Shown: piece after piece, positions 8,370 through 11,918 of the stretch
Layout: each line of letters begins with the position of its first letter
Position numbering within the stretch: the stretch's first letter is position 1
Virus record (IMG/VR): IMGVR_UViG_2875697941_000001
Reading direction: 5' to 3' (one strand)
Length of the DNA stretch: 64,000 nt
Origin: a virus
Taxonomy: Duplodnaviria; Heunggongvirae; Uroviricota; Caudoviricetes
Notes under the pieces: model-generated
Told to the model about the DNA's origin: nothing
Databases searched by the model: none
What the model saw: only the letters and a program-made list of their open reading frames with translations
Made by a program: the position numbers and the translations under genes

Positions 8370-8615
8370 TTGGCAGAGCGTGTTGATGATGCAGAGCTGA
8401 GCATGAATCAGTTAGAAGCTCTCAAAGACATGGCCATCGATAACATCAGAAAGCAGGCACAGGTCGTGAGTCAGGTATTTACAGGGAAGTGTCGTTACTG
8501 CAATGAACCGATTGAATCAGGCATCTATTGTGACGCTGAGTGTGCGCAATGGCACAGGGAAGAGCAGGCCGCAAAACAGCGTAAATATGGCATGCGACCG
8601 GCAGGATTTGACTGA
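8370..8615 (+). CDS. TraR/DksA-type C4 zinc-finger protein
   Basis: CRYC-x11-CDAEC four-Cys spacing at C-terminus, size 81 aa; TTG start after GAGG. Confidence 0.55.
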   Translation: MAERVDDAELSMNQLEALKDMAIDNIRKQAQVVSQVFTGKCRYCNEPIESGIYCDAECAQWHREEQAAKQRKYGMRPAGFD

Positions 8616-8617
8616 TT

Positions 8618-9196
8618 GTGTTGCGCTTTACTGAGGAAGAGTTTCAGGCTTTTAGTGAGCGTCGAAATAAGGGGCGGTCCAGGCCAAAAACCAAAAAGGA
8701 TCCATTCTTATCGCTTGCGCCGGTAAAAGAAGTTTCTCCACATGCGAAGGCACTTGCAGCACTGGCAAAGAACCCTGACCTGCGCGACGGAAATTGCGAG
8801 CACTTCGAGCAGGTTTTCATTTTTGATTACTTCGAACGCAAGCACCCTGACATCTATGAGCTGTTGCATGCAACGCCTAACGGAGGGAAACGTTCAAAAG
8901 CAACCGCCGGGAAAATGAAGGCTGAAGGGCAGAAAAAAGGTTATCCGGACATGAGTCTCGATAAAGCATGCGGTATTTATCACGGCATGCGAATTGAGCT
9001 TAAAGAACCAAATGGTAAAGCCCCGACGAAAGAGCAGATCGCCTGGATGCGCAGGCTTAGAGAGGAAGGTTACTACGTCGTTCTTGCGTATGGTGCAGAA
9101 CAAGCGATAACCGCCATCCTGGAATACATAAGCCTTAAGAAGGGTGAGGCTATTGAGCATGTATTGAACGGCGACAAGTGGTTGTATGCTGCTTAA
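8618..9196 (+). CDS. VRR-NUC domain nuclease (PD-(D/E)xK superfamily)
   Basis: HATPNGGKRS ... GYPDMSL ... GMRIELKEPNGKAPTKEQIAWMRRLREEGYYVVLAYG matches VRR-NUC motif order. Confidence 0.65.
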   Translation: MLRFTEEEFQAFSERRNKGRSRPKTKKDPFLSLAPVKEVSPHAKALAALAKNPDLRDGNCEHFEQVFIFDYFERKHPDIYELLHATPNGGKRSKATAGKMKAEGQKKGYPDMSLDKACGIYHGMRIELKEPNGKAPTKEQIAWMRRLREEGYYVVLAYGAEQAITAILEYISLKKGEAIEHVLNGDKWLYAA

Positions 9197-9359
9197 AATA
9201 ATAAATTAATTAGTGCACATGTGCTCTTTGATATAGCGCACATTAACATCGGGAGAATAATAGTGTCATTCAAGGTTAATTATGAATCGCTGGCATCGAT
9301 CATGCCGCGTAATGAACAGGAAGCAGATGCTGAAGTGGACCCGGTAATCGCTGAAATGA

Positions 9360-10022
9360 ATGCTCGCCTGGAGGCTGAATTTGCAGCTGAGAATGAACAT
9401 ACCACCCAGGGCGACTAGGACTGTTTTTTGTGTCGGTAGCGGTCCGTCACTCACTCGTGAGGACTGTGCTGCTATAGAAAAAACTGGCTGTTCAATCATT
9501 GCGGTTAACAATTCCTGGCTGATGTTCGATGACATTTATGCCTTATACGCCGGTGATTTGTCATGGTGGAAGCAATACGGTTCCACCATACCGGGAGGGA
9601 GGTTCCGCAAAGTGACAGCCAACCTGGCGGCGGCGAAATCATTTTCGTTGGAGTACAGGCGATATTGTAGACCGGCGGAAGGGGTAAATAGCGGCGCGCA
9701 GGCTATCAGTCTGGCTGCTGAATCAGGGGCTGAAGTAGTGGTATTAGTCGGCTATGACTGTTCTCTGCAAAACGGCCTTCATTGGCATGGCGCGCACCCT
9801 CAAGCCCTACGGAATCCAACGCAGGTGTCTATTTCAAAATGGCAACAGCAGTTCCTGGATACCCGCAAAAAACACGCAGATTTACATATTTTGAATGCAA
9901 GTAGGAGCAGTGCAATTCAATGTTTCCCAAGAATAAATTTAGAGGCAGTGATCGCGTTATTATCGTCGGCAGTGGCCCAAGCGCCGCAAACTTTGTTGCG
10001 CCGCGCGGAGTGCCGATTATAG
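9360..10022 (+). CDS. GT42/DUF115-like (CstII-type sialyltransferase-like) protein, paralogue 1
   Basis: VFCVGSGPSL ... IIAVNNS ... SGAQAISLAAESGAEVVVLVGYDCS parallels CstII GNGPSL / CNQF / SGxxxxAxAxxGxxxIxLxGxD; start uncertain (ATG 9360 or 9393). Confidence 0.5.
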   Translation: MLAWRLNLQLRMNIPPRATRTVFCVGSGPSLTREDCAAIEKTGCSIIAVNNSWLMFDDIYALYAGDLSWWKQYGSTIPGGRFRKVTANLAAAKSFSLEYRRYCRPAEGVNSGAQAISLAAESGAEVVVLVGYDCSLQNGLHWHGAHPQALRNPTQVSISKWQQQFLDTRKKHADLHILNASRSSAIQCFPRINLEAVIALLSSAVAQAPQTLLRRAECRL

Positions 10023-10546
10023 CGGTCAATGGGGCTATCGACTGGCTTAACCGCGCTTCTTATTTTTTCACACTTGATCCATCGCCAGACAATATGCGGC
10101 GCGTTGGTCGTGGCCGCCGTCGCCGTGGTGTTTGTTATTGCATGGCACTACCCGATGTTAAAGAACGTGAAGTCAGAGACGGCATTCTGTGCTTCCGTCG
10201 TGTGGCTGAACGCGGCACAGAGCCAAAAAATACGAATTCTCCCGAGTGGTGGGCGTGGCGCTGGTCCGCACATTTCGGCCTTTGCGAAGATGAGAATGAA
10301 ATTGCCAGCGGCAATAGTGCATATGGTGCTCTGAACCTGGCTTTCCATATCGGATTCAAACATGTAGCCCTGGTGGGCGTTGACGCTACGCAAGAACTAC
10401 GCGTTCACTCCGGCGGCACGCCAAAAAATCTAAGTCACCTGCCTTTGTTATTCCAGTCTGCGCGTGAACAGATTGACGTTGTTTCATGCGGGAAAATGGG
10501 AGGTATTCCGCAGATGACTCTTAAAGAATGGCTGAAGAATACATGA
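9920..10546 (+). CDS. GT42/DUF115-like protein, paralogue 2
   Basis: [10 protein letters not shown] ... IIAVNGA ... [28 protein letters not shown]; AGGAG RBS; overlaps paralogue 1 by about 100 nt. Confidence 0.55.
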
Positions 10547-11220
10547 TGGCACCCACAATTTATCACCGTATCGACGGTACCAAATACAGGAATGTCTGGG
10601 TTGTTGGTGATCTGCATGGTTGCTACACCAGACTGATGTCCGAACTCCATCGTGTGGATTTTGACCCGGCGCAGGATTTACTGATATCGGTCGGCGACCT
10701 TATCGATCGCGGTACTGAAAATGTCGAATGTCTGGAACTATTGCAGATGCCCTGGTTCAGGGCAGTGATGGGGAACCATGAGCGGCTGATGATTGATGCG
10801 TTAAGTCCAGATGGCAACGTGAATAACTGGCTAATGAATGGCGGACAATGGTTCTTCATGCTGGACACTGATCAGGAAATATTAGCCTGGGCGCTGGTGG
10901 AGCTGGTAAAGCGTCTGCCCTATATCATTGAGTTGAACACCGGGCAAGAAACTATCGTTATAGCCCATGCCGACTATCCGGATAATGAATACCAATTCGG
11001 TAAGGAGGTGCCGCTTTTCAACGTTGTCTGGGCGCGCGAGCGTATCAGTGATTCGATGGATGATATTGGTGGCGAAATTTCGGGCGCAGATCGTTTTATC
11101 TTTGGTCACACTCCGGTGAAAAGCCCGAAGACATTCTGGAATCAGCAGTATATCGACACTGGTGCCGTATTTTGCGGAAACCTGACATTGATGAAAGTGA
11201 AAGGTGATGGTGCAGCATGA
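10528..11220 (+). CDS. Ser/Thr protein phosphatase (lambda-PPase / calcineurin-like metallophosphoesterase)
   Basis: GDLHG, GDLIDRG, GNHE metallophosphatase motifs in canonical order; P1 ppp position. Confidence 0.85.
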
Positions 11221-11918
11221 AGATTGCTTTAGTTTTTCGCTCTGGTGGTGACTATAACGCTTCCGATGTGCAGTGGCTGGTTAATCAACTGCCAAAAGGC
11301 TATGAAATTATTTGCCTGACAGACCTGAAGCGTTTACATGTACCTGGCGTCAAAGTTGTCCCATTGATCAACCAGTGGCAAAAGTGCCGTGGCTGGTGGG
11401 CGAAAATCGAGTTGTTCCGACCGGATATAACAGATGATCTGTTCTATCTGGATTTGGACACAGTTATTGCCGGTGATATACGCCCAATCCTTGAGAATCC
11501 ACCAACCAGCTTCACCATGCTTAGGGATTTTTACCATCCACAATATCGTGGTAGCGGTGCCCTGTGGATACCAAATAGTGTAAAAGCGCATATCTGGAGT
11601 TCATTCTGGCAAGATCCGGAAGGTTGGATTTCTCGTTGTGTCACTACTGAGTGCTGGGGTGATCAGGGGTTCTTACGGAAGGTTATGGGCGATGATACAC
11701 CAGCATTTCAGGATCTGTATCCAGGATGGTTTGTAAGTTACAAGGCCGATGTTGTGGAACCTGGTTCAAAATATGCGAGCGCGCGTTACTCCAGGGGGAA
11801 TGGGGCATTACCAAAGGACTGCCGAATAATCTTTTTCCACGGCAAACCGCGACCTCGCGAAGTGTCAGAGGATTGGCTTCCCCTTATTAGCTCGTTTTTT
11901 GAGCGAGAATCAGAATAA
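11217..11918 (+). CDS. putative GT-A-fold glycosyltransferase (DxD motif)
   Basis: [13 protein letters not shown] DxD-type motif after N-terminal Rossmann-like beta-alpha; start overlaps phosphatase stop. Confidence 0.5.

Follow-up and report, generated by a model that had tools for sequence, protein, structure and literature searches.

The pmgO-pmgP-ppp-pmgQ block of P1-like phages: a portable set of predicted glycosyltransferases with a possible role in glycan assembly

Why should a phage carry several sugar-transferase-like genes and a Ser/Thr phosphatase side by side, and what would their products modify? The question is raised by the stretch of DNA analysed here (the window; 64,000 nucleotides), which belongs to a P1-like phage-plasmid with 98.3% nucleotide identity to P1 (NC_005856). 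All open reading frames (ORFs) flagged in an earlier note on its letters were found; the block is the P1 operon pmgL-pmgM-pmgN-pmgO-pmgP-ppp-pmgQ, and an ORF coupled to ban is P1 dbn (Table 1). Glycosyltransferase-like genes at this position are already known and are not new, because RefSeq and PHROGs carry labels for them (pmgO is 'alpha-2,3-sialyltransferase' and pmgQ 'glycosyltransferase' in RefSeq, and dbn 'possible glycosyltransferase' in the P1 record) and because knockouts and CRISPRi have been published. The comparative picture of a portable cassette, its loci and its fusions is one that we did not find in the literature that could be searched. Catalogued in P1, pmgO-pmgP-ppp-pmgQ comprises three predicted sugar-adding enzymes that travel together through many phages of Gram-negative bacteria, and an unrelated phosphatase gene between them.

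Layout and control of the operon

Table 1. Features of the operon and of dbn, in window coordinates
Feature	Position	Strand	Description
dbn	2427-3425	+	Probable GT4-like GT-B; ATGA overlap with ban
Late promoter LPpmgL	8263-8281	+	Putative; transferred from P1 annotation (L001 8464-8482, offset 201); divergent from LP26
C1 operator O26/Op82	8296-8312	-	5' of pmgL; ATTGCACTAATAATTTT, 2 mismatches to C1 consensus; annotated in P1
pmgL	8370-8615	+	First gene of operon; small DksA/TraR-like zinc-finger protein; phrog_54 'DksA-like zinc-finger protein', E 1.7e-13
pmgM	8618-9196	+	VRR-NUC-type nuclease-like protein; phrog_5702 'Holliday junction resolvase', E 4.8e-27
C1 operator Oppp (Op83)	9203-9219	-	pmgM/pmgN interval; transferred from P1 annotation (L001 9404-9420)
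pmgN	9263-9418	+	Small protein; phrog_2350; 3' end overlaps annotated pmgO start
pmgO	9360-10022	+	Maf/CstII/MptE fold; predicted nucleotide-sugar (CMP-ulosonic acid type) glycosyltransferase
pmgP	9920-10546	+	pmgO paralogue
ppp	10528-11220	+	Lambda-type Ser/Thr (PPP-family) metallophosphatase
pmgQ	11217-11918	+	GT8-like GT-A glycosyltransferase, predicted retaining, Mn2+/DxD, UDP-hexose type
C1 operator OpmgRa	11920-11936	+	Pattern match and P1 annotation
C1 operator OpmgRb	11969-11985	-	Pattern match and P1 annotation

A search of the window with the C1 operator consensus returned 11 matches against 0.25 expected, including operators at both ends of the operon; the downstream pair, OpmgRa and OpmgRb, marks its end and the start of pmgR-pmgS. 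The internal operator Oppp was absent from this search of the window because its sequence, itself present, has more than three mismatches to the consensus used. With the flanking operators, and with LPpmgL and Oppp from the P1 annotation, this is therefore a repressor-controlled lytic operon, read both early and late. The block had been placed in the late region, which fits its late promoter, but it is also under C1 control and read early too. In P1 it diverges from the baseplate operon, and we expect that the cassette would be expressed during lytic growth only.

The first genes of the operon appear to be passengers. Neither pmgL nor pmgM encodes a glycosyltransferase, the former product being DksA/TraR-like and the latter VRR-NUC-like (Pfam VRR_NUC, E = 3e-4, under the cut-off), and together with pmgN they are probably unrelated to the cassette whose transcript they share. 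In published knockouts and CRISPRi, all genes except pmgN, and thus also pmgL, were dispensable for plaque formation in the laboratory; pmgN was essential by CRISPRi and non-essential in the knockout listing. Single knockouts and CRISPRi knock-downs left plaquing and anti-restriction unaffected.

Folds of the cassette proteins

The GSGPS...GxD motifs that the earlier note had read in two overlapping paralogues were located in both PmgO (GSGPS26-30, AVN48-50, NSG110-112, GYD131-133) and PmgP (GSGPS17-21, AVN35-37, NS132-133, GVD153-155), and the CstII-type set GxGPS / N / (N,T)SG / GxD is invariant in each of the two families. Pairwise BLASTP related the proteins across 40 residues only (E = 0.002); hhalign of the family profiles, from which a natural O-P fusion protein was left out, did so over 160 columns (97.9% probability, E = 4e-13). 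This similarity exceeds chance and, judged by sequence, the two are paralogues. Both match Pfam MptE-like (E = 6.4e-5 for PmgO, which also matches phrog_4603 at E = 1.6e-73, and 3.4e-4 for PmgP), with scores under the cut-off for the window proteins, and the PmgP family member P0252 clears it. Pfam and profile matches agree with structure comparison (AF2 model of PmgO, pLDDT 87.7) on the Maf/DUF115/CstII fold suspected from the letters. It is improbable that PmgO and PmgP are pyrophosphokinase-like proteins (MptE, thiamin-pyrophosphokinase type) or non-catalytic, leaving only PmgQ and Dbn to transfer sugars.

Residues 1-16 of the PmgO model have low pLDDT and homologues begin around residues 12-20; the true start is probably ATG 9393 rather than the annotated 9360. 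The pmgO and pmgP genes overlap by 103 nt, with the pmgP ATG lying within the codons for a conserved Cys-Phe-Pro of PmgO. Many lineages, distant homologues included, likewise have the pmgP start within pmgO, a position that implies translational coupling. Maf (DUF115) flagellin glycosyltransferases (5MU5) have 632 residues, flagellin binding being ascribed to the domains on either side of the core, whereas PmgO and PmgP, at 200-220 residues, consist of the catalytic core only and form a phage-borne paralogous pair without flagellar context, linked to a GT8 enzyme (locus L096 excepted). Their likeness to the GT42 sialyltransferases CstII and CstI is statistically weak, and the equivalent of the catalytic His188 region is not alignable; the acceptor of CstII is lipooligosaccharide. 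The label 'sialyltransferase' for PmgO is unjustified, as the K-12 host makes no CMP-sialic acid. No membrane segment was predicted in any cassette protein (highest hydropathy in a 19-residue window at most 1.53).

PmgQ, noted from its letters as a DxD (GT-A-like) ORF, is a GT8-type GT-A protein by both profile and fold. Its DLD79-81 is invariant in 27 homologues, as are H208, G209, P211 and P213 besides D79 and D81. The PmgQ profile matched 6mw5 (E = 1.6e-6), 5gvv (0.004) and glycogenin (0.02) in the PDB; PmgQ had no match to the Pfam Glyco_transf_8 model. Among the best 50 Foldseek matches of its AF2 model (pLDDT 94.4), all were GT8-type GT-A structures except 4ayl, from another GT-A family (E = 1e-8 to 1e-6, TM 0.5-0.6, probability 1.0 throughout). 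PmgQ thus shares the GT-A fold, the DxD metal site and a C-terminal H-G-x-P-x-P with GT8 enzymes such as glycogenin, the Skp1 alpha-galactosyltransferase AgtA, GlyE and LgtC, but at 12-18% identity; at ~230 residues it is shorter than these, is carried by phages and is joined to Maf-like enzymes by fusion or coupling.

Dbn is the weakest of the fold calls, a probable GT4-like GT-B glycosyltransferase on sequence evidence. The GT-B motif proposed for it stood, as EX7E at E248-E256, invariant in four homologues, but the match to Pfam Glycos_transf_1 (E = 1.5e-5) falls just short, scoring 25.1 bits where the cut-off is 26.4. In P1, dbn lies 6 kb from the cassette; phage EP_H11 and prophage L115 have a homologue inside it (order O-P-Dbn-Q), and in L099 and L105 the homologue is no more than 3 kb away. 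Dbn would thus be a fourth enzyme that the cassette may include or lack.

Ppp is a full-length orthologue of the lambda Ser/Thr protein phosphatase (NinI/ORF221; 1G5B, E = 1.5e-94; Pfam Metallophos, E = 9e-16), as the earlier note had supposed, and retains all the metal-binding motifs (GDLHG27, GDLIDRG56, GNHE82). We consider it very unlikely that Ppp acts in the same pathway as its neighbours, for example by freeing acceptor Ser/Thr hydroxyls or dephosphorylating a sugar-phosphate intermediate. Coupled translation with both neighbours (19 nt shared with pmgP, and an ATGA joining its stop to the pmgQ start) and a P1 repressor operator bearing its name, Oppp, would suit such a role, but a Ppp model searched against 34 cassette loci matched the P1-like locus only, phage D6 retains ppp (89.7% nucleotide identity) with no PmgP match, and the lambdoid orthologue (NinI-like by its PHROG name) is a nin-region gene rather than part of a glycosyltransferase operon. 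The suggestion that the phosphatase belongs to the sugar system is therefore not supported, and ppp would be an independent accessory gene placed between pmgP and pmgQ.

Distribution, fusions and genomic settings

PmgP and PmgQ, usually with PmgO, recur at ~25 unrelated loci in phages, prophages and chromosomes, and every named host is an LPS-bearing Gram-negative (outer-membrane) bacterium. PmgP is accompanied by PmgQ wherever the contig reaches far enough, except in L096, where the contig stops ~1 kb beyond PmgP and a different GT-A occupies that space; most loci have PmgO as well. PmgP is the most conserved and most widespread member, with 327 homologues in a word-indexed search and 531 cluster representatives among 1.84 billion, and is at least 50% identical between phages with unrelated virion proteins. 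Natural fusions join O to P (P0044), P to Q (P0213, P0295) and Q to P (P0301), or include a methyltransferase (Q-P-methyltransferase in P0263, methyltransferase-P in P0299), and in phage XacN1 a TylF-like O-methyltransferase is fused to Q. Besides Dbn, optional additions are a further GT-A and sugar-type O-methyltransferases. The suggestion that these sugar-transferase genes act together is strongly supported for O, P, Q and Dbn by the unrelated loci and the fusions, and we are confident that they form a cassette of cooperating glycosyltransferases.

Its settings are often structural. Three prophages, Pseudomonas L103, Ochrobactrum L104 and Zhongshania L095, carry the cassette with the major capsid gene on one side and head-tail connector genes on the other; in L098 it adjoins connector genes, and in L003, L004, L096, L107, L110, L113 and L115 it flanks the lysis cassette or terminase genes in a late operon. 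Chromosomal copies are interspersed with genes for inverse-autotransporter and Big_1 adhesins. Other settings are non-structural: in L101, L109 and L112, from lytic and jumbo phages, the cassette adjoins ribonucleotide reductase or DNA-metabolism genes, and in L108 a lone P-Q pair lies amid metabolic genes.

Candidate donors and acceptors

The analysis shows what the genes are, their folds, motifs, paralogy and overlap, their joint occurrence, fusions and settings, and the repressor operators; catalytic activity, donor sugars, the sequence of the transfers and, most of all, the acceptor are what we infer here. PmgO and PmgP, probably working as a pair of soluble enzymes, would each transfer an acidic keto-sugar from a CMP-activated donor; PmgQ, as a retaining enzyme, would add a hexose from a UDP-sugar through its DxD/Mn2+ site, and Dbn a further sugar. 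The product may be a short oligosaccharide whose length and composition vary from phage to phage. To our knowledge, E. coli K-12 makes no pseudaminic or legionaminic acid, and CMP-Kdo is its sole donor of the CMP-activated acidic keto-sugar kind. Kdo is a possible donor, which suits both LPS-bearing hosts and the absence of sugar-nucleotide synthesis genes beside the cassette in the contexts read.

The likeliest acceptor would be Ser/Thr of proteins: virion proteins made concurrently in phages, and surface adhesins where bacterial chromosomes have domesticated the genes. The positions at capsid, connector, lysis, terminase and adhesin genes argue for a protein target, as do C1 repression and divergence from the baseplate operon; the closest solved structure to PmgO (Maf) modifies protein, and so do several of those closest to PmgQ (GlyE, AgtA, glycogenin). 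The non-structural settings, however, count against this reading. That the block is P1's portable glycan-assembly cassette, acting on such an acceptor, is a reading that we hold tentatively, at a little less than an even chance. P1 virion proteomics (PMC9024508) and two P1 cryo-EM studies do not mention glycosylation, and none sought it.

Of the targets offered in the earlier note (virion protein, DNA or host surface), virion protein is the best supported. We favour it over remodelling of the cell envelope, an unlikely reading in which Kdo and hexose would be added to lipid A-core (Kdo2-lipid A) or a lipid-linked glycan at the cytoplasmic face of the inner membrane during lytic growth; alteration or truncation of the LPS core, the P1 receptor, would then spare progeny from loss to debris or block superinfection. 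The enzyme set does parallel LPS-core families (GT8 includes WaaO and WaaJ, GT4 includes WaaG), the Gram-negative-only hosts fit an LPS acceptor as well as a Kdo donor, several copies occupy a slot behind the lysis cassette that is typical of accessory genes, and a capsid protein accounts for the conservation of PmgP across unrelated virions no better than would a sugar or a universal acceptor such as Kdo2-lipid A. PmgP also weakly matches WaaZ, the Kdo III transferase of E. coli K-12 (TIGR04437, E = 0.1), and the O-P fusion faintly matches PF27901 (WaaZ_KDO_III), but specific kinship failed: the alignments are short, over the G.D strand and a C-terminal helix, with hhalign probabilities of 9-16%, a resemblance at most at the superfamily level and without membership. 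Moreover, the lysogen keeps the cassette repressed and lytic promoters drive it, whereas the seroconversion proteins GtrABC, likewise phage-encoded agents of sugar transfer, are membrane proteins expressed in lysogens; a latent period of ~1 h leaves little time for replacing existing LPS; and the capsid, connector and adhesin-linked positions better suit a protein.

A host cytoplasmic protein or small molecule, glycosylated for take-over or counter-defence while the virion is spared, is a still less probable target. Dispensability on laboratory K-12 is usual for counter-defence genes, the cassette is highly mobile among many phage types, the lone P-Q pair and the copies near DNA-metabolism genes would suit such a role, and DxD GT-A enzymes include toxins that modify host proteins. 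However, the cassette matched none of the PADLOC defence-related families and has no conserved linkage to known anti-defence genes, its late structural-region positions recur in many phages, and a multi-enzyme build-up with O-methylation resembles a displayed glycan more than a single inactivating modification.

Glycosylation of phage DNA before packaging is the least likely of all, to the point of being nearly negligible. P1 packages host DNA, and its own DNA has long been restriction-mapped and sequenced; we know of no report of hypermodification. The timing of late expression would be right for modifying replicated DNA, ribonucleotide reductase, ThyX and dNMP-kinase genes stand close to some relatives, and phage DNA glycosyltransferases are well known, those of the T-even phages among them. 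T4 Agt and Bgt, however, require hydroxymethylcytosine DNA, and the contexts read hold no base hydroxymethylase, TET-like dioxygenase or DNA-binding partner beside the cassette; among structural relatives, the nearest have proteins or glycans rather than DNA as acceptors, and the published knockouts kept their anti-restriction behaviour. The P1 proteins differ from Gtr and from T4 Agt/Bgt in being soluble, lysogen-repressed, of other folds and without a maker of modified bases.

Virion-protein glycosylation has a precedent in mycobacteriophages, where, by the account of Freeman et al. (2023) given in PMC11600133, an O-methyltransferase and three tandem glycosyltransferases modify capsid and tail tube. 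These cassettes too are phage-encoded tandem glycosyltransferases, sometimes with an O-methyltransferase, lying among virion genes and non-essential for growth; their hosts are actinobacterial rather than Gram-negative.

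The operon and the folds of its products

The window belongs to a phage-plasmid of the P1 type; its region from 8300 to 12000 is 98.3–98.7% identical to phages P1, P7, RCS47, SJ46 and their relatives, and the open reading frames singled out in the earlier note match P1 genes one to one. That note had described a block of glycosyltransferase-like genes on sequence alone; the block is present and its fold calls were correct, with the same calls already standing in RefSeq, the P1 annotation and PHROGs. RefSeq labels pmgO 'alpha-2,3-sialyltransferase', pmgQ 'glycosyltransferase' and ppp 'metallophosphoesterase', dbn (the gene coupled to ban) is a 'possible glycosyltransferase' in the original P1 annotation, and the PHROGs labels agree with these. 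The database calls for pmgO, pmgQ, ppp and dbn are predictions from homology, and as glycosyltransferase-like genes are already annotated in P1, their detection is not new. PmgL and PmgM, the first two products of the operon, bear no relation to sugar transfer.

Coordinates of the operon, its control sites and related features in the window and in homologous loci
Feature	Sequence	Coordinates	Description
pmgL	window	8370-8615	DksA/TraR-like zinc finger
pmgM	window	8618-9196	VRR-NUC nuclease-like protein
pmgN	window	9263-9418	
pmgO	window	9360-10022	
pmgP	window	9920-10546	
ppp	window	10528-11220	
pmgQ	window	11217-11918	
dbn	window	2427-3425	coupled to ban
C1 operators	window	8296-8312; 11920-11936 / 11969-11985	bracket the operon
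Slippery heptamer	window	9935-9941	A_AAT_TTA, pmgO frame
Fragments of pap	window	13555-13746; 13715-13909	short open reading frames
IS1-family remnant	window	13970-14429	minus-strand open reading frames
AT3–SGNH fusion gene	window	14805-16661	~40% GC (low)
GT-A-like protein	L003	11757-12335	~190-residue family
GT-A-like protein	L113	8252-8827	~190-residue family
GT-A-like protein	L115	7593-8162	~190-residue family
GT-A-like protein	L096	8636-9184	~190-residue family
Methyltransferase–PmgQ fusion	Xanthomonas phage XacN1 (L112)	5630-6946	TylF-like sugar O-methyltransferase
Adhesin islands	L089-L093 (Pseudescherichia/Enterobacteriaceae)	~200-16500	inverse autotransporter of ~1170 residues (IAT_beta and 7 Big_1 repeats)
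Chromosomal PmgO, PmgP and PmgQ copies	Serratia plymuthica (L105)	1674-4115	PmgO directly upstream of two Big_1 genes

PmgO (220 amino acids) and PmgP (208 amino acids) score 23.2 bits (E 6.4e-5) and 20.9 bits (E 3.4e-4) against PF01973, the MptE-like/DUF115 (Maf) family, both below its gathering threshold of 34.6 bits; P0252, a homologue within the PmgP family, passes that threshold at 44.1 bits, so that this family borders PF01973. Both proteins have the Rossmann-like core shared by Maf, CstII and MptE, and this fold assignment is secure. A transferase chemistry is predicted for both and is no more than likely, because pyrophosphokinases have the same fold. Single-sequence searches of the PDB with PmgO, PmgP and PmgQ were uninformative, and PmgO was the member of the O/P pair for which a structure model was built. 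Pairwise BLASTP aligned PmgO with PmgP over the N-terminal GSGPS...IAVN block only (E 0.002). The two family profiles aligned over 160 columns in hhalign (97.9% probability, E 4e-13); this final comparison left out the natural O–P fusion P0044, which had inflated an initial one and on one half of which MAFFT had stacked both paralogous families. By this measure PmgO and PmgP are true paralogues.

The motifs GxGPS, N, (N/T)SG and GxD are invariant in both families and coincide with the CstII-aligning blocks of the profile search, where the PmgO-family profile drew eight CstII/CstI sequences at weak E-values (0.09–0.7) over two motif blocks and matches to the PmgP profile included none. Each family has invariant histidines (H141 and H143 in PmgO, H173 in PmgP), at most candidates for an equivalent of the catalytic His188 of CstII. 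For a phage of K-12 the RefSeq label 'alpha-2,3-sialyltransferase' is misleading, and the comparative data correct it. The Maf glycosyltransferases of flagellin differ in architecture and setting, being proteins of ~600 residues with flanking acceptor-binding domains and a flagellar context, none of which fits PmgO or PmgP: only 163 residues align with the 632-residue Maf structure 5mu5, and no flagellar genes were found in the cassette contexts read. Membership of the WaaZ family of Kdo transferases was considered for both proteins and rejected, with hhalign probabilities against Escherichia coli WaaZ of 8.9% (PmgP family) and 16.4% (PmgO family) and a match of PmgP to TIGR04437 (Kdo III transferase WaaZ) that has an E-value of 0.1 and scores 11.9 bits where the model requires 200; PF27901 matched the O–P fusion protein faintly.

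PmgQ has a GT-A fold closest to GT8 structures. It drew no Pfam match with E ≤1, not even to Glyco_transf_8, and therefore represents a distinct, divergent GT8-like clade (PHROG 1962). Its family profile found AgtA (6mw5, E 1.6e-6), GlyE (E 0.004) and glycogenin (E 0.02) in the PDB, and among the best 50 Foldseek matches to its structure model (pLDDT 94.4) all were GT8-type except 4ayl, all with probability 1.0 (best E 1.3e-8). PmgQ has a DxD motif (D79-L-D81) and a C-terminal H208-G-K-P-R-P, GT8 enzymes being recognised by a C-terminal motif resembling H-x-x-G-x-x-K-P-W; D79, D81, H208, G209, P211 and P213 are invariant in 27 sequences, and both motifs align with their counterparts in 6mw5 and glycogenin. 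Dbn, encoded 6 kb from the operon in P1, reaches 25.1 bits against the GT4/GT-B model Glycos_transf_1, narrowly under the cut-off of 26.4; its EX7E motif (E248–E256) is invariant in four homologues, and its profile weakly matches MshA-type GT4 enzymes in the PDB (E 0.5).

The lambda-PPase-like phosphatase of the earlier note proved to be a PPP-family Ser/Thr phosphatase and a full-length orthologue of the lambda enzyme (1G5B, E 1.5e-94, residues 11–229) that keeps all catalytic motifs, GDxHG, GDxxDRG and GNHE lying at residues 27, 56 and 82. It falls below the cut-offs of the E. coli PrpA and PrpB equivalog models (NF008516, 272.5 vs 326 bits; NF007425, 239.5 vs 332 bits) and is best classed as a phage-type orthologue related to both. 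Among the 34 loci compared, the Ppp model matched the P1-like Pantoea element alone, and phage D6 has kept ppp at 89.7% nucleotide identity with no match to PmgP. The gene is independent of the cassette and only incidentally lies within it in P1, and the phosphatase should not be read jointly with the transferases.

A mobile cassette with optional modules

PmgP is the most conserved and most widespread family of the cassette: a word-indexed search gave 327 homologues, and a set of 1.84 billion proteins yielded 531 cluster representatives. A scan of viral contigs with its profile added no diversity, the best 80 matches all being P1-like. Family models were run on 34 genomic, metagenomic and isolated-phage loci; PmgQ accompanied PmgP wherever the contig reached far enough, and PmgO was also present in most loci with both. 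The sole exception, L096, stops ~1 kb past PmgP and has a different GT-A protein at the PmgQ position. Cassette hosts include Enterobacteriaceae, Pseudomonas, Alloalcanivorax, Zhongshania, Xanthomonas and Stenotrophomonas, and extend to Ochrobactrum, Brevundimonas, Commensalibacter, a methylophilaceae genome, a Bacteroidota genome (Sinomicrobium) and a Longimicrobiales genome.

Natural fusions join the families in several orders, as O–P (P0044), P–Q (P0213, P0295) and Q–P (P0301), and with methyltransferases as Q–P–methyltransferase (P0263) and methyltransferase–P (P0299); the PmgQ of jumbo phage XacN1 carries a fused TylF-like sugar O-methyltransferase. The enzymes fused to PmgQ- or PmgP-like domains in XacN1 and in the metagenomic P0263 and P0299 are of sugar O-methyltransferase types (TylF-like, Methyltransf_24, class I SAM-dependent). 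Homologues of Dbn lie within the cassette of phage EP_H11 (O–P–Dbn–Q) and of a lambda-like prophage (O–P–GT-A–Dbn–Q), and <3 kb from it in two chromosomal islands. Other versions carry an additional Nucleotid_trans-like GT-A protein or class I or FkbM methyltransferases; methyltransferases are present in L095, L101, L107 and L112, and the P1 cassette has none. A small GT-A-like family of ~190 residues, which has the motif W(I/V)D(A/C)D and matches Nucleotid_trans (PF03407) weakly, occurs within several phage cassettes other than that of P1.

In many lineages the start codon of pmgP lies inside conserved Cys-Phe-Pro codons of pmgO, which points to coupled translation. The overlap in the window also holds a canonical −1 heptamer from which a shift would enter the pmgP frame and yield a P0044-like O–P fusion. 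About 0.13 such slippery sites are expected there by chance, and the heptamer is probably fortuitous; a programmed −1 frameshift was rejected in favour of simple coupling, the site not being conserved in other overlapping O/P pairs. At the other end of pmgO, the true start probably lies downstream of the annotated one: homologues start at about residues 12–20, residues 1–16 of the model have a pLDDT of ~50, and an in-frame ATG at 9393 would leave a shorter overlap with pmgN.

Fusions, modules and overlaps of this pattern typify a locus for multi-step glycan assembly with a product that varies from phage to phage, and PmgO, PmgP and PmgQ very probably form a cassette of cooperating glycosyltransferases. 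A PADLOC scan found no defence-system families.

The setting of the cassette differs between replicons. In three HK97-type prophages (Pseudomonas, Ochrobactrum and Zhongshania) it is flanked by the major capsid gene on one side and by head-tail connector or head-completion genes on the other, and connector genes adjoin it in the methylophilaceae prophage. Lambdoid prophages carry it in the late operon, either downstream of the lysis genes and ahead of terminase or in the interval from antiterminator Q to lysis, lytic and jumbo phages near ribonucleotide reductase and DNA-metabolism genes, and one metagenomic contig has a lone P–Q pair among metabolic genes. Five Pseudescherichia-type genomes and Serratia have intact chromosomal sets that are intermingled with genes for inverse autotransporters and Big_1 adhesins, and chromosomal copies lie near fimbrial operons. 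This intermingling suggests a domesticated cassette that serves bacteria in the glycosylation of adhesins. In L089–L093, three or four further Big_1 proteins are interleaved with PmgO, PmgP and PmgQ besides the large autotransporter. Big_1 Ig-like domains were also sought in P1 and the other phage loci as a potential shared acceptor; none was found outside the chromosomal islands.

Expression, proposed acceptor and possible donor

C1 repressor operators were confirmed on both sides of the operon in the window, which has 11 operator-like sites against 0.25 expected, and the P1 record places a late promoter, LPpmgL, 5' of pmgL and an extra operator, Oppp, between pmgM and pmgN. These elements together imply that the genes are silent in the lysogen and read both early and late in lytic growth. 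The earlier note's placement of the block in the late region thus stands as far as LPpmgL goes and falls short in that the operon is C1-controlled and read early too. Published single-gene knockouts of 24 of 29 P1 genes had no plaquing or anti-restriction defect, and a CRISPRi screen citing that study lists pmgL, pmgM, pmgO, pmgP, ppp, pmgQ and dbn as non-essential. By CRISPRi only, pmgN scores as essential (efficiency of plating 1.4e-2), and the table that reports this gives its knockout as non-essential; polarity and gene dosage do not account for the discrepancy, because the genes downstream are dispensable too.

We tentatively favour protein O-glycosylation, with virion proteins as the acceptors in phages and adhesins for the domesticated copies, and put its chances slightly short of even. 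It draws on expression confined to lytic growth, on the embedding of the cassette in head-gene modules of several phages, on the association with adhesin genes in bacterial chromosomes and on the nearest solved relatives, which include modifiers of proteins or protein-linked glycans (Maf, GlyE, AgtA and glycogenin). [quoted passage not shown] The same arrangement, tandem glycosyltransferases with or without an O-methyltransferase beside virion genes, recurs in the Zhongshania, Pseudomonas and Ochrobactrum prophages (L095, L103 and L104), whereas the P1 operon is divergent from the baseplate/tail operon and lacks a methyltransferase.

Three observations count against virion proteins as the acceptor: the dispensability of the genes in the knockout and CRISPRi studies, P1 proteomics (PMC9024508) and cryo-EM papers that report no glycans (glycans not having been sought in them), and the high conservation of PmgP. 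Such conservation across phages with unrelated capsids fits a universal acceptor, for example Kdo2-lipid A, at least as well, and would accord with remodelling of the LPS core in the lytic phase, which we nevertheless consider unlikely. The cassette does not resemble the Gtr-type systems for O-antigen/LPS conversion of lysogens, which are membrane-embedded and prophage-expressed; the P1 operon is flanked by C1 operators, and none of its proteins has a membrane-spanning segment (top 19-residue hydropathy ≤1.53 in all). A host protein or a small molecule as the target is more improbable again. DNA glycosylation, which we rank lowest and regard as very improbable, is opposed by the lack of a linked base-hydroxymethylating partner and by the unchanged anti-restriction behaviour of the knockouts; to our knowledge, P1 DNA is not hypermodified.

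CMP-Kdo may be the donor for PmgO and PmgP. The argument is indirect: the named hosts all make LPS, the cassette has no sugar-nucleotide synthesis genes, and we know of no CMP-activated sugar in K-12 other than CMP-Kdo. Taking protein O-glycosylation further, P1 and hundreds of phages of Gram-negative hosts could share a portable system not recognised before, in which a Maf-like pair and a GT8 enzyme, with optional GT4, GT-A and O-methyltransferase modules, would build a short oligosaccharide on the virion, perhaps Kdo-containing or O-methylated, and which bacteria would have domesticated for Ig-like (Big_1) adhesins. As a whole this remains a speculative and rather doubtful proposal.

Novelty, implications and a neighbouring surface-sugar candidate

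P1 is among the most used phages in genetics, and its pmg genes have been labelled 'putative morphogenetic function' since 2004. Absent from the literature searched were the conserved, fusion-linked and mobile O–P–Q cassette with its optional Dbn and methyltransferase modules, the finding that Ppp stands outside it and the argument from genomic context that proteins or virions are glycosylated; queries on virion glycosylation in Gram-negative phages or on phage DUF115 proteins turned up nothing relevant. If virions are glycosylated, this would be the first such system in phages of Gram-negative hosts within that literature, and it would broaden the target range of Maf-type enzymes, for which flagellin is the established target. 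It would also matter for phage therapy and P1-based delivery vectors, since in mycobacteriophages antibody recognition changes with the glycan shield. If the LPS core is remodelled instead, the cassette would represent lytic-phase management of the phage's own receptor.

Relative to P1, the region from 13555 to 17600 of the window lacks the 3' part of pap, pmgT, pmgU, pmgV, upfM-O, hot and part of lxr, and pap is split into two short open reading frames. In place of the missing stretch are the IS1-family remnant and a gene of low GC content encoding an AT3 acyltransferase joined to an SGNH domain, as O-antigen/LPS O-acetyltransferases are built. The latter is a separate candidate modifier of surface sugars in the lysogen.
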